Shown here in pieces: positions 4,625 to 63,190 of a stretch of DNA of 64,000 nucleotides (positions within the stretch are counted from its first letter, which is position 1; each line of letters starts with the position of its first letter). A program made the translations under genes and the position numbers. The notes beneath the pieces are model-generated. The model worked only from the letters and a program-made list of their open reading frames with translations. It was not told the origin of the DNA and searched no databases. Source of the stretch: Candidatus Saccharimonadota bacterium (GTDB lineage: Bacteria > Patescibacteriota > Saccharimonadia > Saccharimonadales > UBA10212). The stretch is taken from assembly GCA_022841445.1 (NCBI GenBank), contig JALHRM010000001.1, positions 323,777-387,776 of the forward strand, in the 5' to 3' direction.

Positions 4625-6376
4625 ATGGATGCGGTGAGTGAGGTTAAGGAGCGATTAAATATCGAGGACGTTATCGGCGAATACGTCCAACTTAAACGTG
4701 CTGGCCGCAACTTCAAGGGTATGAGCCCATTCAGTAATGAAAAGACCGCCAGCTTTATGGTTAGTCCAGAAAAGCAGATCTGGCACGATTTTAGCTCGGG
4801 TAAAGGTGGTAATGTATTCAGTTTCATCATGGAAGTCGAGGGCCTGGAATTCAAGGCGGCCTTGGAGTTATTGGCTCGCAAGGCGGGTGTCGATCTTGAA
4901 CAGTTCCGTGGCAAAACCCAGGGTAACGGCTATAACGCCCAGCTGAAGAACCGGGTGCTGGAAGCTCTGGAACTGGCGGTACGTTTTTATCAGAAGCAGC
5001 TGACCGGCAGCAAGGAGGCGCTCACTTATTTGCTCAAAGAACGCCAATTTACCAAAAAGACCGTTTTGGATTGGCAGATAGGTTACGCGCCGAACAATGG
5101 TCGGGCACTGAGTGATTTTTTGACTAAACATGGCTTTACGACCGATGAAATGAAGCGAGCTGGTTTGGTGGTTGAGCGTCGTCATGGGCTTGGTGATATG
5201 TTCCGCGGCCGGATCATGATTCCGTTAGCCGACCAGCAGGGTGCTGTCGTCGGATTCACAGCCCGGATACTCATCGACGAGCCAGATGCGCCCAAGTATA
5301 TCAATACGCCTCAAACTATTGTTTATGATAAAGGCCGACAGGTTTTTGGGCTTCATATGGCCAAGGAGCGTATCCGTAAAGACGGCTTTGCCGTAGTTGT
5401 CGAAGGTAACATGGATGTCATTGCCAGTCATCAGGCCGAAGTCATGAACGTCGTAGCAACGGCCGGTACGGCCATGACCGAATCACACCTAAAAACGCTA
5501 AAGCGCTTCACTGGCGACATTCGTCTCAGCTTCGATAGTGACCAGGCGGGGCTAAACGCTACAGAGCGAGTCATCCCGATGGCACAAAAGGCGGAAGTGC
5601 AGCTCAGTATCATTCAGCTTAGTGACGCTAAAGACCCTGATGAGCTTATTCGGCGTGAACCACAGGCCTGGGCTAAAGCGGTTAATGACCGGAAGTACGC
5701 CATGGATTGGTTGATTGAGCGGTACGTGGCTATTTATGATCTAAAGTCCGCTAGCGGCAAGCGCGAATTTACGGACGTCATCTTGGCAACGGTGCGCCGT
5801 TTGAGTGATTCAGTCGAACAGGAGCACTACCTAAAGAAAGTTGCCGAGATAACTGATACCAGCATAGAAGCGGTTGTCATGAAGCTTGCTAAAAAACCAG
5901 CATTATCTGATACACCACGAATGAGGACAGTTAAACCACAGCCAGCAGCTGCGACCAAGACCGAACAGGAACAACAGATTGCTCAAGATCACTTTTTGTC
6001 TATCGCACTTGCCAAAAAATCAATGAGACAGTTACTGCCGTCAATGGACTTACTGTGGTTTCGTGACGGCCCGTCCCGCGAACTTGCACAATTTTTGCAA
6101 AAGAACCCGGCTTTTAACGGTAGTGGCACTGCCTCGGAGAAGTTGCAATCAATCGCTGACTATGTCAAAATAGTAGGCCTACAGTATGAGGAGCTTTATG
6201 CGTCCATTGATGACGATCAGCTCCGCGAGATTCACGCTCGTCTGAAAAAACGAATAATAGAAATTTACGTCAAAAAACAAAGAAAGTTGCTTGCAGTCGC
6301 TATGCAGCAGTCTGTCAATGATAATGACAATCAAAAATTAGTAGAAAAAGTTCAGCGTCTTAACCAGCTCAAGTAG
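4625..6376 (+). CDS. dnaG: DNA primase
   Basis: N-terminal primase ZBD-like region ([35 protein letters not shown]), RNA polymerase core and TOPRIM motifs ([19 protein letters not shown]). Confidence 0.9.
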
Positions 6377-6402
6377 TAATCAGATTGATTGAAGGAGGCA
6401 CT

Positions 6403-7635
6403 ATGCCCAAAGCCAAAATTGAAAAGCCAGCAAAAGAACTAGCACAACCCAAAGCCACAAAGGCTACGAAGAAGGAAGAAAAACCGGTAAAGGAAGCCAA
6501 GGCGGGGAAGCTAAAAAAAGCCGAAAAGGTCGCACAGACGCCAGTAGCGGATTTTGACAAAGTCATCGATGAACTGATAGAAAAAGGTAAAAAAGACGGC
6601 AAGATAGATCAACGCGACGTCTTTGAGAAGATTCCGGATACCCCAGCTAATATAGATGCACTGGACAAACTGTACTCAGCTTTGTCGGAAGCCAGTATTG
6701 AACTTGTTGGTGCAACTGAGCCAAGTCCGGCAGACTTTTCCGACGAATGGGTTGCAGATGATGAAGAAGAGGTTGTCGTTCCTGAAGGAACTTACTTCGA
6801 CGACATATCTGATGACTCAGTACGTTTGTATCTGCGAGAAATAGGCAAGATTCCACTACTGAAAGCTGACGAAGAGTTGGCCTTGGCCAAAAGAGTGGTC
6901 GCTGGAGACAAGCGTGCCAAAGACAAGATGGCTGAAGCTAACATGCGTTTGGTGGTTAGTATCGCTAAACGCTACAGCGGTCGAGGACTGGACTTCCTTG
7001 ATCTTATTCAGGAAGGTAATACCGGTCTACTGCGTGCCGTCGAAAAGTTTGATCCCGACAAAGGCTTCAAGTTTAGTACGTACGCAACATGGTGGATTCG
7101 CCAGGCGATTACGCGAGCGATTGCCGACCAGGCTCGAACTATTCGTATCCCGGTACATATGGTTGAAACTATCAATAAACTACTTCGTACCCAGCGGCGT
7201 CTAACGCAAGAACTCAACCGCGAACCAACCAATGAAGAAATCGGTGCAGCCATGGAAATGACTGTCGATAAAGTTGAACACATCATGAAGATTAAGCAAG
7301 ACATCAGCTCACTCGATGCCAGTGTTCGAGATGACGAAGAAGATTCGGTCCTTGGTGATTTTATCGAGGACGAAGATACTGTCAGCCCAGAAGAATCAGC
7401 TACTGGTCAGCTGCTCAAAGAACAAATTAAGCAGATTCTAGGTACATTAACCGAGCGAGAACAAAAGATACTCAAGCTGCGTTTCGGTCTAGAAGACGGC
7501 AAGAGTCACACTCTGGAAGAAGTAGGCCAGGAATTCAGCGTTACCCGCGAGCGTATTCGTCAGATTGAGGCCAAAGCACTCGCCAAGCTGCGCAAGCACA
7601 AAGACGCCCGCAAGCTCCACGACTACATTCAGTAA
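6403..7635 (+). CDS. rpoD: primary-type RNA polymerase sigma-70 factor
   Basis: RBS GAAGGAGG then ATG 6403. Regions 1.2-4 are present: [71 protein letters not shown]. Confidence 0.9.
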
Positions 7636-7677
7636 CCCTTGTGTTTAGCGGAGTTTCATAATCTATACTATTTAGCT

Positions 7678-8700
7678 ATGACATTCGAAGCAGAGGGGCT
7701 GCCACCACCAAGTACGCAGCGTGCAATCCGGCACCATCACGGCGCTCACGGCGCCGCTCTTAGGGCTATGCTTAGCACTGACCTACCTATTGAACAAGTC
7801 GCAGTTAATACGGGTAGTCTTGAGGAGGTAGCAGGATTCGACGAAGTTGCACCAGTCAGAATGGAAGAACTGCGTCCAGATCCAAACATGGACCCACTTA
7901 GCCTGTTCCTGCGACGTATCGGTCGAATTCCATTATTGACTGCCCGTCAGGAGGTGGATCTCGCGAAAAGGATTGAGCAAGGTGACTTAACTGCCAAAGA
8001 ACAACTTACCGAGGCGAATTTACGCCTGGTAGTCAGTATTGCAAAAAGGTACCGTGGGAGAGGACTGCCATTTCTGGATCTTATTCAAGACGGTTCGCTG
8101 GGTCTTATACGTGCCACCGAAAAATTTGACTACAGAAGAGGCTATAAGTTCAGCACCTATTCCACTTGGTGGATTCGCCAAGCGATTACGCGAGCGATTG
8201 CCGACCAGGCTCGAACTATTCGTGTTCCTGTGCATGTGACAGAATTCCTGAACAGCATTAGACAGGTTGAAAGGGCATTTGTTGAAGATAATGGCAGGGA
8301 GCCAACTCGTAACGAAATCGCTGCAGAACTTGGCTGTGAAGTATCAAAACTCAATGATTTATTGCGGGATACAACCCAGCCAGTATCGCTCCATTTACCC
8401 GTGGGTGAGGATGGGGATGAAGATCTAGCTGCATTCACAGCAGACACCAGGGTAAATGTAGTGCGTGATGTCGAAAAATCATTAAGAAGCCAATCTATTG
8501 GTGAAGCCCTCGGGACTCTTAGTGAGCGAGATCGTGATATTCTTGAGCGTCGGTATGGTCTGAGGGGTTTCAAGTCTCACACACTTGCCGAACTTGGTAA
8601 AATACACAGCGTTACCCGTGAGCGAATTCGCCAAATAGAAGTCCTTGCACTACAGCAAATTGCAAACACGTATCCCGGTCTTGAGATATTTTTTGACTAA
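7678..8700 (+). CDS. second sigma-70 family factor (group 1/2-like) in tandem with rpoD
   Basis: [87 protein letters not shown]. The N-terminus is His-rich (RHHHGAHG). ATG 7678 is preferred to TTG 7639. Confidence 0.85.
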
Positions 8701-34491: not shown

Positions 34492-35061
34492 ATGAGCAGT
34501 AATAAACAAACGCTTCTTGACCAGATCAAAGCAGATATTCTTTCGCAGAATATCTGCCCAGACTTGGCCGAGCAGGCCACGCAGCTGGTGTTTGGGGATG
34601 GTAATCCCGATGCCGATATGGTGTTTATCGGCGAAGCTCCTGGCAAGAATGAGGATCTGCAAGGCATCCCATTCGTCGGAGCAGCAGGTAAGTTCCTGAA
34701 CGAGATGCTCGCCAGTATAAGTCTGAAAAGGGAAGACATCTACATCACTAATATAGTGAAGTATCGTCCGCCCAATAACCGCGACCCTTTGCCAGATGAA
34801 AAAGCTGCTTTTTTGCCGTTTTTGCAATCCCAGCTGGAAGTAATCCAACCAAAAATTGTCGTCACACTTGGACGACACAGTATGGATTCCCTCCTGCCGG
34901 GCTTACAAATAAGCCAAGTGCATGGTCAGCCAAAAAGATATAACGGACAAGTGTATTTGCCCTTATTCCACCCGGCTGCAGCACTTTATAACGGGGGACT
35001 ACGCCAGACGCTGCTAGACGATTTTGCAGCCATCCCCACAATTTTAGCGAAAATTAAATAA
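34492..35061 (+). CDS. uracil-DNA glycosylase, family 4
   Basis: [23 protein letters not shown]...PFVGAAG and [10 protein letters not shown] motifs. Confidence 0.85.
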
Positions 35062-55232: not shown

Positions 55233-57017
55233 ATGAATATACTCTCAGAAGAAACACAAAAAAGCGTCGAGAAAGCTCTGGTTGATGACGGCCTGATAAC
55301 AAAGGCAAAAATTCATGAACTAAAGGAAAAAGCCCACAAAGAAGGCCAGCCATTTATGGCGCTACTAGTTGAGCAGGGGCACATTACCGATGAGCAGCTG
55401 ACTCACGCTCTGGCAACCGCTAGTAAGTTACCGTACGTGAACTTGAGTGAAGCCAAGATTGACACCAAAATTTTGGAGCTTTTGCCAAAAGAAACTGCCG
55501 AACACTACATGGCGGTGCCTCTTGGCGAAATGCAGAACCGTTTGGTTGTTGGCATGCTAGATGCCGACAATGTTCAGGCCATCGACTTTTTAAGCAATAA
55601 AATCGGTCGTCCGCTAAAAGTCTATGCAGCAAGCGAAACGGGCATTAAAAGTGTTCTTCTGCAGTATCAGCAGAGTTTGGAACGAGGCATGGCTTCGATG
55701 TTTAACAAGCCCGGAGATGCCGAAAAAGAGCAAGAAGAAGTCATTCCGACCGGCAAAAAGACCCAAACAATTGTGCAGGATTCTCCCATCAGCAGGGCGT
55801 TGTCGGCAATCATGGATTACGCTGTTAAAAACAAAGCCAGCGATATCCATATCGAACCACTAGAAGCTGAACTTAAGATTCGTTGCCGGATTGACGGTGT
55901 CCTGAAAGAAGTTATGAAGCTCCCCAAAAGCACCGAGCCACCTTTAATTAGTCGCATCAAGATTTTATCTAACCTGAAAATTGATGAACATCGCATTCCG
56001 CAAGATGGTCAGTTTTCGGTGAATGTGGATGGTCGTTCGATTGACCTGCGTATCGCTATTAGTCCGGTAGTGTGGGGTGAGCAAGTAGTTATTCGTCTCC
56101 TCGATAAGTCGGGAACCAGCTTTAAGCTCGAGGACATGGGGTATCGTGGTCGTGCACTTCGGGCAATACGCAAAGGCTTAGAGCGGCCCAATGGCATGAT
56201 CCTGACTTCTGGACCGACTGGTTCGGGCAAGAGTACCTCGCTTTATGCCTTGCTGCAAGAAATTAAGAATGACCAAATCAACATCGTGACACTGGAAGAC
56301 CCAGTCGAGTATAAGATGCAGGGTATCAACCAGATTCAAGTAAACCCGGATATTGGGTTAACGTTTGCATCCGGTTTACGGTCGGTGCTTCGCCAAGACC
56401 CGGACGTGGTGATGGTTGGGGAAATTCGCGACAGGGAGACCGCGACACTGGCCGTTCAGGCGGCGCTAACGGGCCACCTGGTTTTTAGCACGCTGCACAC
56501 CAACAGTGCCGCAGGAATTCTGCCACGTCTGCTTGATATGGGCATCGAACCGTTTTTGATTGCCAGTACCGTTCATACCGTCATTGGACAACGGTTGGTG
56601 CGCAAAATCATTCCTGGTGGCGAATCATACGAGTCTGACATCGCCGAAACAGAGGCAATTAGACAGACTATTGGTGATTTGCTACCAAAGAACAAAGAAG
56701 AAGTTGAAGAAGTGTCAAAAGATCTCGGCTACGAGTCCTTGCCACTTGCCAGTCAAAATGCTTATACTTTAATGAAGGGTAAAGCCGGTTCAGCAGATGC
56801 CGCAGGGTATAAGGGGCGATTGGGATTATATGAAGTTTTTGAAGTTAATGAACAAATCCAAGACCTTATCATCAAGCGCTCGACGAGCGCCGAGATCCAA
56901 GAGGCTGCCGTGAGTGATGGGATGATAACCATGCGTCAGGACGGATACTTTAAGGCGCTTGACGGTAAAACGACACTGGCAGAGATTAACCGCGTGGCGG
57001 CATCAGACAACGCCTGA
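55233..57017 (+). CDS. pilB: type IV pilus extension ATPase (GspE/PilB family)
   Basis: N-terminal T2SSE_N-like domain, Walker A SGPTGSGKSTS, Asp box, Walker B VVMVGEIRD and His box LVFSTLHTN. Confidence 0.9.
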   Translation: MNILSEETQKSVEKALVDDGLITKAKIHELKEKAHKEGQPFMALLVEQGHITDEQLTHALATASKLPYVNLSEAKIDTKILELLPKETAEHYMAVPLGEMQNRLVVGMLDADNVQAIDFLSNKIGRPLKVYAASETGIKSVLLQYQQSLERGMASMFNKPGDAEKEQEEVIPTGKKTQTIVQDSPISRALSAIMDYAVKNKASDIHIEPLEAELKIRCRIDGVLKEVMKLPKSTEPPLISRIKILSNLKIDEHRIPQDGQFSVNVDGRSIDLRIAISPVVWGEQVVIRLLDKSGTSFKLEDMGYRGRALRAIRKGLERPNGMILTSGPTGSGKSTSLYALLQEIKNDQINIVTLEDPVEYKMQGINQIQVNPDIGLTFASGLRSVLRQDPDVVMVGEIRDRETATLAVQAALTGHLVFSTLHTNSAAGILPRLLDMGIEPFLIASTVHTVIGQRLVRKIIPGGESYESDIAETEAIRQTIGDLLPKNKEEVEEVSKDLGYESLPLASQNAYTLMKGKAGSADAAGYKGRLGLYEVFEVNEQIQDLIIKRSTSAEIQEAAVSDGMITMRQDGYFKALDGKTTLAEINRVAASDNA

Positions 57018-57057: not shown

Positions 57058-58131
57058 ATGAGTACACAAGGACAGCCGCGAATCGAGGTATTACTCGAAG
57101 AAGTTATTAAAAAGAAAGCTTCAGACCTTCACCTGCAAGTTGGGTTGCCACCGATACTCCGTATAGACGGTGCATTGATTCACGTACCAGGCACAGATGC
57201 GCTCAATGAAGAATCTGTCGAAGCCTTGATATTTGCAATCTTAGACGCTGATCAAAAAGAAATTTTGCTTAAAGACAAAGAGTTCGACTTTAGTTTTGCT
57301 TTCGGCGACCTGGGTCGATTCCGCGTAAACGCTTTTCATGAGCGAGGCAACTTAGCCGCTGCGCTGCGTTTGATTCCGAACGAAGTCATGACTATCGAGC
57401 AGTTGTCTTTACCGCAAATTGTTAATAAGTTTGCCGACTATCCACGTGGATTGGTGCTTGTTACGGGCCCAACTGGATCAGGTAAGAGTACGACACTTGC
57501 GGCGCTAATTCACAAAATTAACCACGAACGCGCAACGCACATTATTACTATCGAAGACCCGATTGAGTTTACGCACAAATCTCAAAAATCAGTCATTGTG
57601 CAGCGCGAAGTTCACTATGACACCTATAGCTTTAGCGCGGCGCTTCGGTCAAGCCTGCGTGAAGACCCCGATGTGGTGCTTATTGGTGAGATGCGTGACC
57701 TTGAAACCATCGCTGCTGCTATTACCATTGCCGAAACTGGTCACTTAGTGTTTGCGACGTTACATACTAACAGCGCCGCTCAGAGCATCGACCGTATGAT
57801 TGATGTTTTCCCACCGCATCAGCAACCACAGATTCGGGCACAGCTTAGCAACATCTTAATGGCTATTTGTTCGCAGCGCTTAGTGCCGTCAATCGGTGGC
57901 GGGCGAGTGGCAGCAGCCGAAATACTAGTCGCAACGCCTGCTGTACGCAACATCATCCGAGAAGGTAAAAGCCACCAGCTGGATGCCGTTATTCAAACCG
58001 GCGCAGAATATGGAATGCAGAGCATGGACCGTACGCTGGTAAACCTAATCCACAGCGGTACTATCAGCTACGAAGAAGCCAGAAACTTTGCGGTTGACCT
58101 TGAAGAACTTGATCGGCTAATGAGAGGCTAA
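57058..58131 (+). CDS. pilT: type IV pilus retraction ATPase
   Basis: ASDLHLQVG.PP..RIDG, Walker A TGPTGSGKSTT, VVLIGEMRD, LVFATLHTNSAAQSIDR, AEIL..TPAVRNIIREGK. Confidence 0.9.
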   Translation: MSTQGQPRIEVLLEEVIKKKASDLHLQVGLPPILRIDGALIHVPGTDALNEESVEALIFAILDADQKEILLKDKEFDFSFAFGDLGRFRVNAFHERGNLAAALRLIPNEVMTIEQLSLPQIVNKFADYPRGLVLVTGPTGSGKSTTLAALIHKINHERATHIITIEDPIEFTHKSQKSVIVQREVHYDTYSFSAALRSSLREDPDVVLIGEMRDLETIAAAITIAETGHLVFATLHTNSAAQSIDRMIDVFPPHQQPQIRAQLSNILMAICSQRLVPSIGGGRVAAAEILVATPAVRNIIREGKSHQLDAVIQTGAEYGMQSMDRTLVNLIHSGTISYEEARNFAVDLEELDRLMRG

Positions 58132-58136
58132 GACAA

Positions 58137-59357
58137 ATGCTGACGTACACGTATACCGCCAGAGACCCATCGACCGGCGCAAAAATTAAAGCCGATGTTC
58201 AGGCCGAAAGCGAACAGGCTGCTGCTAAGCTCATCAAGCAGCAAGGGTATGCGCCACTCGAAATTACACCGGCAGTCGCTCAAAGTACGGGCTTATTCAG
58301 CCGATTCACAAACCATATTCGTACCAAGGATAAAATCCTTTTTTCTCGGCAGCTTTCGACATTGATTAACGCTGGCCTACCACTGGTGCAGAGCTTGCGC
58401 TCTACCGCCAATCAAACCAAGAGCAAACCGCTCAAAGTTGTCGTTAGCAAGGTGATAAATGATGTTGAAGCTGGTATGGCGTTTTCCCAGGCACTCGCCA
58501 AACATCCCGGTGTATTTGGCGAAGTATACATTGGTCTTATATCAGCTGGCGAAGTATCCGGTACTTTGGATAAAGCTTTAGAACGATTGGCCGACCAGCA
58601 GGAAAAAGATGCTGAAATTTTGAGTAAAGTCCGTGGTGCAATGGTCTACCCAATCATCGTGTTACTGGTGATGGTTGGGGTGGTAACATTCATGCTACTA
58701 GCGGTTTTGCCGCAGGTACAAGAACTTTACAAAGGCTTGCCCGGTGCGAGGCTGCCTTTTATTACATCGGCTTTACTTGCTGTGTCGGAATTCACTGGTA
58801 AATTCTGGTGGGCAATACTCGGTGTGATGGGTGTCGGAGTCTTTTTGACGACACGCTGGGCACGTACTGGCCCCGGTAAGCGAGTAGTTGATAGACTGAA
58901 AATTGAATCAATAGTCATCGGCCAGCTTTTCAAAAAGCTATACATGGCTCGTTTTGCAAGAACTTCTACAACGCTAGTCGCCAGTGGCGTACCACTGCTA
59001 CAAGTACTATCAATAACTGCCAAGTCGATAAACAATATCCATGTCGAAGAGTCCATAAATAATGCCGCGAGCAAAGTTAAAGGAGGTAAGGCACTGTCGG
59101 ATAGCTTAGAGGGCGACCGCAATTTTGATGAGCTGGTACCAAACATGCTACGGATTGGTGAACAATCCGGATCGGTCGAGGACATGCTCGCCAAAACTGC
59201 CGACTACTTCGAGAAAGAAGTTGATAATCAGATTAAGACCATATCAACCATCATTGAGCCGATTATGATGATTCTGATGGGTATTATGGCGCTTTTGATC
59301 GTGGCGGCTATATTGCTACCAATATATGGGCTTGTCGGGCAGGGCGTCCTAAACTAG
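58137..59357 (+). CDS. pilC: type IV pilus platform protein (GspF/PilC family)
   Basis: Two T2SSF repeats (FSRQLSTLINAGLPLVQSL ; FARTSTTLVASGVPLLQVL), 3 TM, 406 aa. Confidence 0.9.
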   Translation: MLTYTYTARDPSTGAKIKADVQAESEQAAAKLIKQQGYAPLEITPAVAQSTGLFSRFTNHIRTKDKILFSRQLSTLINAGLPLVQSLRSTANQTKSKPLKVVVSKVINDVEAGMAFSQALAKHPGVFGEVYIGLISAGEVSGTLDKALERLADQQEKDAEILSKVRGAMVYPIIVLLVMVGVVTFMLLAVLPQVQELYKGLPGARLPFITSALLAVSEFTGKFWWAILGVMGVGVFLTTRWARTGPGKRVVDRLKIESIVIGQLFKKLYMARFARTSTTLVASGVPLLQVLSITAKSINNIHVEESINNAASKVKGGKALSDSLEGDRNFDELVPNMLRIGEQSGSVEDMLAKTADYFEKEVDNQIKTISTIIEPIMMILMGIMALLIVAAILLPIYGLVGQGVLN

Positions 59358-59461
59358 CTTACGGATAATATCCTTGCTTTTTAGTGTTATCGGTCATACT
59401 ATGTAAGCATTAGCGTATTCTTACGGCATAACATATAAAGCAAAGGGGGCATTTGCAAGCC

Positions 59462-59977
59462 ATGAGTATCAAAGAATTATACGGAAAAAAGAAAGACGAA
59501 GGCTTTACCATTATCGAGGTGATGATCGTCTTGGCTGTCGCAGGTTTGATTTTGGTGATCGTGTTGATTGCTATCCCGCAGCTCCAGCGTAACCAACGTA
59601 ATGCGGCCAGGAAGAACATCGTCGCTCGAGTTAGTACGGAGGTTGCATCATTTGCAGGAAACAACAACGGTGCCTTACCAACGTTGAATAATAACGCACA
59701 GACTGGCATTACTGGTGGATTCCAGACTAGGTATCTCACAGGCATAAACTATCAAGACCCTTCTACGGGGAACAACTACACCATAACTACCGGACCTAAT
59801 GCTCCTGCTGCTGTTGGAGAGATGAGATATCAGACGACCCAGATATGCAACGGTGAGACTCCAGTTGGGACAATTCCGGCTGGTGGTGGTAACCCCGCTG
59901 TTGTTGCAAATACCAGGAACTACACCCTTAGTGTGTTCCTTGAAGGTGGTGCTACATATTGCGTAGACAATAAATAG
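59462..59977 (+). CDS. type IV major pilin candidate (PilA-like)
   Basis: RBS AAGGGGG. Prepilin motif KKKDEG|FTIIEVMIVLAVAGLILV with Glu5, a C-terminal Cys pair (C...C), and a strong terminator directly downstream. Confidence 0.85.
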   Translation: MSIKELYGKKKDEGFTIIEVMIVLAVAGLILVIVLIAIPQLQRNQRNAARKNIVARVSTEVASFAGNNNGALPTLNNNAQTGITGGFQTRYLTGINYQDPSTGNNYTITTGPNAPAAVGEMRYQTTQICNGETPVGTIPAGGGNPAVVANTRNYTLSVFLEGGATYCVDNK

Positions 59978-59998: not shown

Positions 59999-60030
59999 AA
60001 GACCGGTCAAAAAGGCCGGTCTTTTAATTT
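59999..60030 (+). terminator. intrinsic terminator after the pilin gene
   Basis: AAGACCGG (59999-60006), 9-nt loop, CCGGTCTT (60016-60023), then TTAATTTGTTTG. Confidence 0.75.
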
Positions 60031-60050: not shown

Positions 60051-60884
60051 GTGATAATGGTTATGCTGCTGCTTTTTATGGTTGGTCTTTGCATGGGTAG
60101 TTTTGCTGGTGCAGTTGTCTGGCGAGTCTTTAAGCAATCAAAAATAAAGTCAAAAAATGGCCGAACTGAGTACTCAATAAGCCAGGGTCGTTCTATGTGT
60201 GAACACTGCGGACATGCACTAGCCACAAAAGACCTCATACCGCTAATCAGCTACCTCGGTCTGCGAGGCGAATGTCGTTACTGCCAAAAGCCTATTGCTC
60301 GCAGCGTGCTGGCCGTAGAGCTGGCTGGGGGCATTGTTTTCGTGCTGTCATACGTATTTTGGCCAACCGAGCTTGTGGGCGCCGAACAGATCATCCCATT
60401 CGTTACTTGGCTATTATCATCAGTTGGTTTGCTTGCGTTAGCGCTCTATGACTATAAGTGGTATATTTTGCCAAATCGTATCTTGTACCCGACTTTCTAC
60501 ATAGCTTTGGCTGGCTGGCTGGCAAACGCGGTGTTGTTCAACTTCGAGTTTGAATCAGTGTTAAAACTGTTAAGCAGCATTGCTATCGCCAGCGGGATAT
60601 TCTGGCTGATTTATATGCTTAGTAAGGGCAGGCTCATAGGGTTTGGGGATGTGCGTCTCGGACTTGTCACAGGCACATTATTGGCTGATCCTCGCTTGAG
60701 TCTACTCATGATATTTGTAGCATCGCTAATCGGCACGCTGTTTGCCGCACCACAGCTTGTTGCTGGCAAAAAAACTGCCACTAGCCGCATCCCATATGGA
60801 CCGTTTCTAATACTCGGCACAGCCATCAGTTTGTTTTTTGGCGAGTCTATCATAACTTGGTACACAAATTTACTCATCTTGTAG
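60051..60884 (+). CDS. pilD: prepilin peptidase (A24 family)
   Basis: N-terminal Cys motif CEHCGH...CRYCQ, multiple TM, and aspartyl active-site regions GFGDVRL and PYGPFL. Confidence 0.9.
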   Translation: MIMVMLLLFMVGLCMGSFAGAVVWRVFKQSKIKSKNGRTEYSISQGRSMCEHCGHALATKDLIPLISYLGLRGECRYCQKPIARSVLAVELAGGIVFVLSYVFWPTELVGAEQIIPFVTWLLSSVGLLALALYDYKWYILPNRILYPTFYIALAGWLANAVLFNFEFESVLKLLSSIAIASGIFWLIYMLSKGRLIGFGDVRLGLVTGTLLADPRLSLLMIFVASLIGTLFAAPQLVAGKKTATSRIPYGPFLILGTAISLFFGESIITWYTNLLIL

Positions 60885-60910
60885 TTCAGTCTTCACTATA
60901 TCCCCCAGCA

Positions 60911-61019
60911 CTGCTTTACCCCAGAAGCCTTTAGAAGGGATTGGATTGCTAACGCCATAGGCGCGAGCAAAGTGAGCCCTATAAAGTGCACCTTCCTAAA
61001 GGCTTCTGGGGTAAAGCAG
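60911..61019. repeat. 24-bp perfect inverted repeat enclosing a 61-nt structured spacer
   Basis: CTGCTTTACCCCAGAAGCCTTTAG (60911-60934) is the exact reverse complement of 60996-61019. The spacer holds a nested hairpin TTGCT-AA-CGCC-ATA-GGCG-CG-AGCAA. Confidence 0.9.
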
Positions 61020-61065
61020 ACATTCACTCCTTCACTTCTTACCGCTTGTGGTTTATACTCAATTT

Positions 61066-61929
61066 ATGTGGTCGCTCAAGGGTGTGGGTTCGGTTCACTC
61101 AGGCTCAGATGGAGGCTCGAGTGGCTTTACTATTACCGAGGTATTAATTGTACTGGCGGTGACTTCGCTCTTGTTTGTCAGCACGGCGGTCGCAATTAAT
61201 GGCCAGCAGGCCAGTACGCAGTTTTCGCAGGGCATGCGAGACATTGAATCAAAAATTAGAGATGTAATCAATGACACAGCTACCGGATATGTGCCAAGCA
61301 ATAATCAAAATTATCTCTGCCAAGTTATTGGTGGTGTGCCCAGAATTACTGCCGGAAGCGGTTCAGGGCTTGGAACCAACGACCAGTGTGTTGTTTTGGG
61401 GCGAGCAGTCCAGGTGAGTACGACGGCTGATGCTAACAAGGTGTATATCTATACGGTTATTGGTCGACGTACTATGCCAGTCGCAGTAGGATTGTCGGCA
61501 AGTGTACCGGTTGCGTCATTGGCAGACGCCAACCCGGTAGCTGCAATCGATGGCGTTGATTTAACTGAAACATATGACCTGCGTGGCGGGATGCGGGTAC
61601 TTTCGGCACGCACAATTACTCGAGCCGATAGTGGTATGGCTGGATTTTTTGCTAACTTTACCAACACCACAAGTGGTTCCACTAGTGACGATGGCAGGGT
61701 TAGTGCGCTGGAATTGCCGGTGTCATCCAACTCTACATACCAATCAACCGCCGTAACAAATTGTCTGGAATTTCAGTCTCCTTGTGACAACATCGCCGCA
61801 CTTAACCTAGGCGAATGGTCGATTTGTTTCCAGCGCTCCGACGAGCGCCAAACAGCCAGGCTTATAGTAGGTGATGCGACCCTAAAATCACCGACTACAG
61901 TACGGGTAGAATTTGAGGACTGCACATGA
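61066..61929 (+). CDS. minor (pseudo)pilin, large
   Basis: Prepilin motif GGSSG|FTITEVLIVLAVTSLLFV. The start is uncertain: ATG 61066 or GTG 61048. Confidence 0.75.
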   Translation: MWSLKGVGSVHSGSDGGSSGFTITEVLIVLAVTSLLFVSTAVAINGQQASTQFSQGMRDIESKIRDVINDTATGYVPSNNQNYLCQVIGGVPRITAGSGSGLGTNDQCVVLGRAVQVSTTADANKVYIYTVIGRRTMPVAVGLSASVPVASLADANPVAAIDGVDLTETYDLRGGMRVLSARTITRADSGMAGFFANFTNTTSGSTSDDGRVSALELPVSSNSTYQSTAVTNCLEFQSPCDNIAALNLGEWSICFQRSDERQTARLIVGDATLKSPTTVRVEFEDCT

Positions 61930-62423
61930 AAATTACCAACGATAACAGGGGCGAAACCATTATCGAAGTGTTAATCGCTATTGCGGTTATTGCCTTAACA
62001 CTCGGAACGTCATTTGCGCTGGCAAATCGCAGCTTGCGGCTCGGTATCGAATCGCGCGAGCGCGGGGAAGCTTTGCAGATTATCGAATCCCAGATCGAAA
62101 GCTTAAAATACGTTTATGCTATCGCTCGTGAAAATGGACTAGAAGCCCAGTTCGATATCCTATATCGCACCAATACTCCATTTTGCGTACGTGCTATAGA
62201 AACTGTCGACCCAAGTGTACACCATCGACCAGTTACATCACCTGATTGCACGGTGAACTCACTCGGTGCATCGGGACAACCAGACTCCAGATATCGTATA
62301 TCGATTCAATACGTAGCAGATACGAGCCCCGCACTCAATAATTCTGTTCATGAATTTAGTGTCAGATGGGATAGATTTGGTGGTGCGGTTGATGAACCAA
62401 CAAGGATTTACTACCGATTATGA
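61926..62423 (+). CDS. minor (pseudo)pilin
   Basis: ATGA overlap with the upstream gene. NDNRG|ETIIEVLIAIAVIALTLG, with Glu at +1 instead of Phe. Confidence 0.75.
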   Translation: MKITNDNRGETIIEVLIAIAVIALTLGTSFALANRSLRLGIESRERGEALQIIESQIESLKYVYAIARENGLEAQFDILYRTNTPFCVRAIETVDPSVHHRPVTSPDCTVNSLGASGQPDSRYRISIQYVADTSPALNNSVHEFSVRWDRFGGAVDEPTRIYYRL

Positions 62424-63190
62424 GACGAACTACATACCAGCAGGACTTAAAGAAGTACCCCTCTAGGCTAGAGTCCTCGACCGTCCCTGACGGTCTACGG
62501 ATAGCCGGAAGAAGCACTTCTTTGACTCCCGCCCAACGTGGTTTTACTATTGTTGAACTATTGGTTGCATTGACTGTTTTTAGTCTAGTCTTGCTGCTTT
62601 GCCTGGTTGCACTCATTCAGATCGGCCGGATGTTTTACAAAGGTATATCGCTATCGCGCACCCAAGAAGTAGCTAGGAGTATTGCGACAGATATTAACAA
62701 TGATCTTGTTCTTAGCAAAGGGATTGTCGAGGTCGGGACTGACGCTGGTAGCAACTTAAGCTGGTACTGTATTAGCGGGCATCGTTATACCTATGAACTT
62801 GGTAAAAAGTTAGGTACTGACGCAGCAGCCGGTGTCCGTCGTGACTCACTTGTTAATAATAGTGCCTGTAGCCCCATAGTGAGTGGTGCAGCTGAGCTCG
62901 ATACCAATGTTTATAGTGATCAAACAAAAGAATACCTCAGCGATGGAATGCGCGTGAACATGTTTGATATCCAAAACTGTGCATCAGGGCTCTGCACAGT
63001 GCAGGTGAGGGTGCTGTTTGGTGAGGACGATCTATTCATGAGTGATACTACGCCGCTTCCGTCCAATCCAACTGCCACAGACTATGCTCTAGTTTCATCC
63101 CAGCCCGATGCCCGTTGCACAGGAACACTATCGAGCTCCCAATTCTGTGCTACGGCAGATGTATCAACTAGCGTGTATAAGAGGTTTTGA
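62420..63190 (+). CDS. minor (pseudo)pilin with long leader
   Basis: ATGA overlap. PAQRG|FTIVELLVALTVFSLVLLL, preceded by about 41 aa if ATG 62420 is used. Confidence 0.7.
   Translation: MRRTTYQQDLKKYPSRLESSTVPDGLRIAGRSTSLTPAQRGFTIVELLVALTVFSLVLLLCLVALIQIGRMFYKGISLSRTQEVARSIATDINNDLVLSKGIVEVGTDAGSNLSWYCISGHRYTYELGKKLGTDAAAGVRRDSLVNNSACSPIVSGAAELDTNVYSDQTKEYLSDGMRVNMFDIQNCASGLCTVQVRVLFGEDDLFMSDTTPLPSNPTATDYALVSSQPDARCTGTLSSSQFCATADVSTSVYKRF

Follow-up and report, generated by a model that had tools for sequence, protein, structure and literature searches.

The 64,000-nt stretch of DNA analysed here (hereafter the window) contains a type IV pilus locus in which a long inverted repeat, spanning 60911–61019, lies between the prepilin peptidase gene pilD and the minor-pilin operon. 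Comparison with related loci showed that this hairpin belongs to a lineage-specific palindromic DNA insertion, acquired after the split from the closest sampled relative. We interpret the hairpin as the core of an orphan palindromic insertion that resembles a miniature inverted-repeat transposable element (MITE) or a Rickettsia palindromic element (RPE), a reading to which we assign a probability of roughly 55%. As a small, non-coding foldback element, it would be of one general kind with the Correia, ERIC and RUP elements and the RPEs. The insertion is probably recent, since its arms match at 24 of 24 positions while nearby coding DNA has diverged by ~20%.

PilD homologs assign the window to Saccharibacteria/Patescibacteria. 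Its closest relative, whose PilD (P0002) is 85% identical, is represented by independent contigs (L006–L011, L016–L019) that stem from six ENA metagenomes and one Logan run, seven samples in all, with a nucleotide identity of 76–83% across the locus. In every contig that spans the junction, the spacer between pilD and the minor pilins measures 48 nt, and the hairpin is entirely absent from it. In three further, more distantly related Saccharibacteria whose genes are ordered alike (L012, L013 and L015), the spacers are 41, 41 and 52 nt long. The spacer of the window measures 181 nt (60885–61065). Because the closest relative and all three outgroups have 41–52 nt at this position, the short spacer is ancestral and the window carries an insertion. 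The element is thus present at the orthologous site in the window and missing from that site in the relative and the outgroups, and homology to the relative restarts at 61030. An earlier note on this DNA had named a lack of conserved pairing at homologous loci as evidence against the functional explanations it proposed, and this is what the four related loci display.

The inserted unit and its parts are as follows (a dot in place of a strand means that none is assigned).

60891–60897, + strand: left copy of the 7-bp direct repeat CTTCACT, a candidate target-site duplication (single copy in the relative).
60898–61029, strand (.): inserted unit of 132 nt, 50% GC, made up of 13 nt, the 109-nt hairpin and 10 nt (alignment to the relative; spacer lengths).
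60911–60939, strand (.): left arm of the inverted repeat, 24 nt perfect, 29 nt at 93% (sequence reading, repeat finder).
60946–60970, strand (.): nested inner hairpin (sequence reading, minimum-energy folds).
60991–61019, strand (.): right arm of the inverted repeat, with a bulged C at 60995 (sequence reading, repeat finder, fold).
61030–61036, + strand: right copy of CTTCACT, holding the −35 hexamer of the minor-pilin promoter (alignment).

The limits of the unit were set by its flanks. CTTCACT occurs once in the relative and twice in the window, with the two copies 139 nt apart. Removing 139 nt, that is, the unit and one CTTCACT, leaves a spacer of 42 nt, within the range of the relatives, whereas removing the 109-nt hairpin alone leaves 72 nt, beyond that range; we therefore take the inserted unit as 60898–61029. 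A third TTCACT is located at 61023–61028, at the right end of the insert. The unit sits between the pilD stop codon and the minor-pilin promoter. As the right CTTCACT rebuilds the −35 box, the insertion has left both the conserved promoter and the beginning of the minor-pilin operon undamaged, and the sequence that lay upstream of the −35 box has been displaced by 139 bp.

Within the unit, the arm CTGCTTTACCCCAGAAGCCTTTAG at 60911–60934 is the exact reverse complement of 60996–61019, as both direct reading and the repeat finder revealed. The repeat finder extends the arms to 29 nt at 93% identity (60911–60939 and 60991–61019). Past the 24-bp stem, four extra pairs are formed by AAGG (60935–60938) and CCTT (60991–60994), with the single C at 60995 bulged out. 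The loop contains a nested hairpin, TTGCT-AA-CGCC-ATA-GGCG-CG-AGCAA (60946–60970), which is present in the minimum-energy folds. These three features had all been described in the earlier note and are borne out here. No complementarity is found outside 60911 and 61019, where the stem stops, and the segment between the arms amounts to 51–61 bp.

The predicted folds are unusually stable. A 141-nt stretch folded as RNA reached −62.4 kcal/mol with z −7.3 (+ strand) and −65.2 kcal/mol with z −5.9 (− strand), and the 132-nt unit folded as DNA reached −38.4 (z −9.9); in all three cases, no shuffled sequence folded as well. The stem consists of Watson–Crick pairs throughout and is about equally stable on both strands. 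Both properties are expected of a DNA palindrome, and an RNA shaped by selection need not show them. When up to three mismatches were allowed, the 24-mer was found only at its two arm sites in the window (chance expectation 0.00), and the element is the sole long, near-perfect, closely spaced inverted repeat in these 64 kb. The claim that it is the only element of its kind in the window is hence correct for near-perfect repeats, but it passed over an imperfect palindrome of ~93 nt, 1.4 kb further downstream:

62440–62532 (L001:1012–1104), strand (.): second palindromic insertion, 93 nt (31 codons), in frame (alignment, fold scan).

The two palindromes stand out together in a sliding fold scan that covered both strands of the entire window in 120-nt segments (mean −27.2, s.d. 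6.6 kcal/mol). The first element ranks first, at −64.5 kcal/mol, and 62421–62540 ranks second, at −58.1 kcal/mol; in the comparison with the closest relative, the only other small indel falls in the latter region. Folds made up of one long hairpin with an extreme z (−8.0 and −6.0) were confined to these two regions. Across the 12.2 kb alignable to the relative, no other insertion of >50 nt is specific to the window.

The second palindrome has 31-nt arms at 71% complementarity and a perfect inner hairpin (GACCGTC-CCT-GACGGTC), with CCA directly on each side. It separates the start codon of the third minor pilin from the G/FTIVELL cleavage motif (the slash marks the cleavage site), so that the leader of this prepilin counts 41 residues in the window versus 10, 16, 9 and 16 in L006, L012, L013 and L015, respectively. 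An in-frame TTG at 62522, preceded by GGAAGAAG, could serve as an alternative, new start, which would give a 7-residue leader. The palindrome is 100% identical in the independent Logan contig L001 and is therefore not an assembly artefact. The two palindromes share a design in which ~100 nt form a long outer stem that encloses a small hairpin, and they show no kinship in sequence (local alignment scores of 17 and 16 versus a shuffled null of 14.9 ± 2.2).

Prokaryotic MITEs are characterized by a length of <500 bp, the lack of a transposase gene, terminal inverted repeats (TIRs) of ~4–30 bp and a transcript that forms a stable stem-loop (PMC10969869). Further marks of the class are a flanking target-site duplication, several copies per genome or presence/absence at orthologous sites as a sign of mobilization, and an autonomous relative among the insertion sequences that has matching ends and supplies the transposase in trans. 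With a unit of 132 nt and a hairpin of 109 nt, the element is well within this size, and its open reading frames (ORFs) are at most 43 codons long and have no true homologs. The RNA folds of −62.4 and −65.2 kcal/mol provide the stem-loop. Inverted repeats of 24–29 bp are present, but they are subterminal, 13 nt and 10 nt inside the ends, if the unit is 60898–61029. The favoured reading supposes that a transposase acting in trans inserted the unit and that the CTTCACT repeat would be the resulting target-site duplication. A repeat of the repetitive extragenic palindromic (REP) or MITE type had been named in the earlier note as the alternative that many dispersed identical copies would indicate. 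This class of element gives the best anatomical fit, but many dispersed copies were found neither in the window nor in the collections scanned, among which the species of the window is not represented.

The ORFs mentioned above include a 43-codon frame on the minus strand (60896–61027) with a hydrophobic centre; an open frame on the + strand also crosses the element. Matches of the minus-strand ORF to P0121 and P0122 were rejected as artefacts: both are tandem-repeat proteins in which many weak stretches (38–40% identity) sum to a score.

Several observations weigh against a MITE/RPE-like origin, the first being the lack of a copy family. We found no second copy in the window, whether by matching with up to three mismatches, by blastn-short or by tblastn; this range of 64 kb is also the extent of the search within the element's own genome. 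A scan for the 20-nt arm core in 185,579 species-representative genomes and the JGI metagenomes returned four single-arm hits in unrelated sequence, about the number expected by chance; an exact 20-mer scan misses copies that are >~5–10% diverged. The 185,579-genome collection lacks the window's own species, and because the two-arm self-hit was not returned, the genome of the window lies outside the collection scanned. Nothing was retrieved from viral contigs with the 20-nt arm core and the inner hairpin, blastn against plasmids and phages gave no match, and the + frame translation of the element shared no words with any protein. A mobilizing enzyme is likewise missing nearby, as there is no transposase in the 64 kb.

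The ends and composition of the unit count against this origin as well. The CTTCACT copies are not flush with the inverted repeat, leaving 13 nt and 10 nt outside it, which is atypical for a MITE mobilized by a DDE transposase. A 7-mer is shared between two 35-nt flanks by chance in ~10% of shuffles (P ~0.10), and with 50% GC versus 47% for the window the element is not AT-rich. No direct repeat abuts the 24-bp arms, whose immediate flanks are GCA and ACA. Comparison of both inserts with the window and the related loci (blastn-short, tblastn) produced only noise.

The main rival, possible though doubtful, is a one-off insertion in which no transposon took part and from which no copy family would arise. 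The palindrome would then be filler or foreign DNA joined at a 7-nt microhomology, or the product of template switching or inverted duplication in the course of replication or repair. Illegitimate recombination after natural transformation could have led to it, as could the site-specific insertion of a folded single strand by a tyrosine recombinase at a 7-bp core, comparable to that of CTX-phage with XerCD. Joining guided by microhomology or a core could leave the pattern seen at the ends, where the direct repeat stands apart from the inverted repeat and a third TTCACT marks the right end of the insert; the relatives carry a XerC/D-like recombinase gene ~3 kb downstream, and the element is single-copy in all data searched. 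Against this explanation, 1.6 kb hold two palindromic inserts of ~100 nt that are independent of each other and hard to ascribe to repair accidents, and the target duplication is two-sided, as a staggered cut would make it and a single microhomology junction would not. Moreover, neither arm resembles nearby sequence, so the palindrome is not a local inverted duplication.

It is improbable that the hairpin is an RNA element under selection, that is, an exapted insertion now acting as an insulator, RNase III site, 3′ stabilizer or U-less terminator. The element is absent at every related locus, so neither conservation nor covariation is available as a sign of selection, and the relatives do without a structure at this junction. 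The arms of the very stable 28-bp stem (−62 kcal/mol) are still perfect, as selection would have it, but youth explains this equally well. Selection would also fit the location between two transcription units, after the pilD stop codon and before an independent promoter. Correia and ERIC elements offer precedents (PMC10969869), and PNPase and RNase J are encoded in the window. No U-tract follows the stem on either strand (tails ACAUUCAC on the + strand and UGCUGGGG on the − strand) and the terminator scan reports nothing here, although the genome has canonical terminators (59999–60023); for want of a U-tract, a stem in pilD read-through RNA is not a canonical terminator. Since it is missing from the orthologous spacers, the hairpin is not a conserved control device of the pilD/minor-pilin junction. 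The earlier suggestion of an RNA insulator, RNase III site or attenuator therefore fails as far as a conserved device is meant. What stands is a read-through stem, possibly cut by RNase III, as a by-product of the insertion.

Three other explanations carry very little weight. A small structured RNA gene, a small-protein gene or a protein-binding palindrome is very unlikely. The fold is stable on both strands, and the 43-codon ORF and the open + frame would allow for a product, but neither frame has true homologs and no promoter or terminator brackets the element. Within the element, the scan detected no outward or internal promoter and no terminator. Rfam 15 gave no gathering-score match in the whole window; with E values up to 10, only noise outside the element was obtained in 60700–61250, and ARAGORN reported no tRNA or tmRNA. 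An operator is disfavoured by its geometry, with arms 51–61 bp apart, and by its lack of conservation in the relatives. The earlier proposals of a structured small RNA and of a protein-binding palindrome are not upheld by these results.

Just as improbable is an artefact of assembly or of library preparation, for instance a chimera with an adapter or by foldback. The stretch is not found in any independent assembly, as L001 begins ~400 nt downstream, but the insert is located well inside a contig of 464 kb, its junctions are clean and a 7-mer is duplicated there, and the companion palindrome at 62440–62532 is confirmed in the independent Logan assembly. To our knowledge, the arms match no common adapter, transposon or scar sequence (Illumina, SMRTbell, ONT (Oxford Nanopore) barcodes, Tn5 mosaic end, Himar inverted terminal repeat, loxP, FRT).

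The least probable explanation is the invertible switch of minor-pilin expression (phase variation) proposed in the earlier note: a perfect 24-bp inverted repeat does surround a short segment beside the promoter of a surface structure, but that segment of 51–61 bp has no promoter-like site and is too short for easy synapsis of the arms (known invertible segments are longer, with ~314 bp for fimS and >150 bp for the Bacteroides and Clostridioides switches), the promoter at 61031–61059 lies outside the arms and would stay in place if the segment flipped, neither an invertase nor a recombinase is found among the Pfam-annotated ORFs of the 64 kb, and the relatives lack the element while possessing the Xer-like gene.

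Returning to the MITE/RPE-like insertion, we consider what it might do. By analogy with known repeats, the element would have no designed function, and any effect on RNA would be a by-product. Transcripts reading through from pilD would carry a perfect 28-bp RNA stem free of a U-tract. Such a stem could be a target of RNase III or block 3′ exonucleases and thereby stabilize the 3′ end of pilD; Correia elements are cut by RNase III at their TIRs, and ERIC elements change mRNA decay (PMC10969869; PMC2649163). In that case, the stem would uncouple the transcription of pilD from that of the minor-pilin operon, which is itself run by its own promoter.

This promoter, TTCACT-17-TATACT, had been recognized just downstream of the repeat in the earlier note, and the comparison with the relative reinforces that assignment. 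The 39 nt from 61030 to the ATG at 61066 (CTTCACTTCTTACCGCTTGTGGTTTATACTCAATTT) are 100% identical in the relative, versus 76–83% for coding DNA. The −10 box ends 6 nt before this ATG, a leaderless-type arrangement, and no Shine–Dalgarno sequence precedes the minor-pilin ATG in the window or the related loci. The first minor-pilin start is ATG 61066 and not GTG 61048. All three outgroups have a −10-like box (TATACT or TATAAT) near the ATG; in two of them it lies 6 nt before the ATG, and in the third it touches or overlaps the bases closest to the ATG. These features suggest a conserved minor-pilin promoter that yields a leaderless mRNA. The promoter and the −10 regions are located as follows.

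61031–61059, + strand: minor-pilin promoter TTCACT-17-TATACT (consensus scan).
Minor-pilin −10 regions: window 61031–61066; L006:10710–10745; L012:~4845–4867; L015:~4862–4884; L013:~4860–4873.

The genes around the insertion belong to the pilus locus.

55233–57017: pilB (Pfam).
57058–58131: pilT (Pfam).
58137–59357: pilC (Pfam).
59453–59977: major pilin (Pfam).
59999–60023: canonical intrinsic terminator 3′ of the major pilin, with a 10-bp stem and a T-rich tail (scan).
60063–60884, + strand: pilD (prepilin peptidase), 273 aa, stop codon TAG at 60882–60884, 5′ of the insertion (Pfam A24_N_bact and Peptidase_A24; product P0001 100% identical).
61066–61929, + strand: first minor-pilin-like gene, 287 aa, 3′ of the insertion (the L006 ortholog starts at the aligned ATG; P0123 100% identical over 287 aa).

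The minor-pilin operon starting at 61066 comprises three pilin-like genes with an N-methyl motif. The terminator at 59999–60023 indicates that the organism uses U-tract terminators and that pilD lies beyond a terminator. Locus one of the type IV pili of Saccharibacterium TM7x has the same gene order as the window, and type IV pili are central to host attachment in Saccharibacteria (PMC11623550). The remaining genes of the window are housekeeping genes (primase, two sigma-70 paralogs, Pol I, PNPase, RNase J, FtsK, EF-P and others), and the Pfam-annotated ORFs of the 64 kb include no transposase, integrase or invertase.

Other differences between the window and its relatives were noted at this locus. 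Between pilC and the major pilin, the relative has a 494-aa polysaccharide-lyase gene (PF14099) on the minus strand (L006:7618–9102), where the window has 35 nt (59359–59393); genes have thus been gained or lost at the pilus locus in both lineages. Different samples of this relative yielded contigs that disagree in the third and fourth minor pilins, with 70 aa, a gap and 397 aa in L007:4793–6673 versus 225 and 380 aa in L006:12099–13921, which suggests either population-level variation or an assembly break in the minor-pilin region. The pilD frame stays open for 105 codons beyond its TAG (60885–61199), across the insert and into the next gene in a different frame, and the 48-nt spacer of the relative leaves pilD in frame with the minor-pilin ATG. 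The open frame past the pilD stop codon is probably due to chance and in part a consequence of the palindrome.

Elsewhere in the window, dnaG is directly followed by a tandem pair of full-length sigma-70-family genes with regions 1.2 to 4 (6385–7635 and 7639–8700), an unusual duplication for a small genome. A 13-bp hairpin, CAGATATTCT...AGAATATCTG, is present at 34513–34575, at the 5′ end of a uracil-DNA-glycosylase gene (local 120-nt fold z −5.2). Unlike 60898–61029 and 62440–62532, it is not a long palindrome.

The insertion is clean and datable, in the reduced genome of an episymbiont, and it hit the −35 box of a promoter and regenerated it. Models of pilD/minor-pilin regulation should not be built on this element, as it is no conserved switch, riboregulator or operator. 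The second, unrelated palindrome, in frame and 1.4 kb downstream, indicates that this lineage acquired such elements repeatedly. More tentatively, this Saccharibacteria lineage might harbour undescribed families of RPE/MITE-like palindromes that prefer the fast-evolving minor-pilin operon. One of them would have rewired the pilD/minor-pilin junction with a 28-bp double-stranded RNA stem at a duplicated −35 box, and the other would have been absorbed in frame into a prepilin leader (from ~10 to 41 residues) or would supply the TTG start at 62522. If this conjecture is true, pilus variation in ultrasmall episymbionts would stem in part from selfish palindromes. If more copies exist in the genome, these would apparently be the first MITE/RPE-like families in Saccharibacteria, a phylum for which a full-text literature search found no paper on MITEs, and a natural experiment on their influence on pilus gene expression.

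Among known systems, promoter invertons (fimS and those of Bacteroides and Clostridioides) resemble the element in having inverted repeats beside surface-structure genes. They differ from it in the features by which a switch is made: here the 51–61 bp enclosed have no promoter, the active promoter is outside the repeat, no invertase gene occurs in the 64 kb and the arrangement is not conserved. ERIC/IRU and REPIN elements are closer in form, as the whole element is an imperfect palindrome of ~100–130 nt in transcribed intergenic DNA, where such repeats can alter mRNA stability. Those elements are multicopy, however, and REPINs consist of paired REP sequences with a GTAG motif, mobilized by a RAYT transposase; no such feature was seen in the data searched here.

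Greater similarity is seen to prokaryotic MITEs with long TIRs, such as QMITE2 of Coxiella and the Correia elements (CREE) of Neisseria: like them, the element is small (~110–130 nt) and non-coding, and its inverted repeats of 24–29 bp surround a short core. QMITE2 has direct repeats of 7–9 bp and TIRs of 23–29 bp (PMC10969869). A short flanking direct repeat, an intergenic position beside a promoter, a stable stem-loop and presence or absence between related genomes are further shared traits (PMC10969869; PMC2649163). In contrast to both, the direct repeat here does not adjoin the inverted repeat and a TA target site is lacking, neither a parent insertion sequence nor a transposase was seen, and no similarity to any element searched was found; Correia elements also number hundreds per genome, compared with the one copy known here.

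RPEs, from a different phylum, form families of many copies with a conserved encoded peptide, whereas each palindrome described here is a singleton in the data searched. They measure ~100–150 bp, fall into several families unrelated in sequence and occur in a genome that is reduced and dependent on a host, where they have inserted between genes and also, in frame, into ORFs that remain functional reading frames (PMC10969869). The window recalls this picture with one intergenic palindrome (60898–61029) and one in-frame palindrome (62440–62532), both of them lineage-specific.

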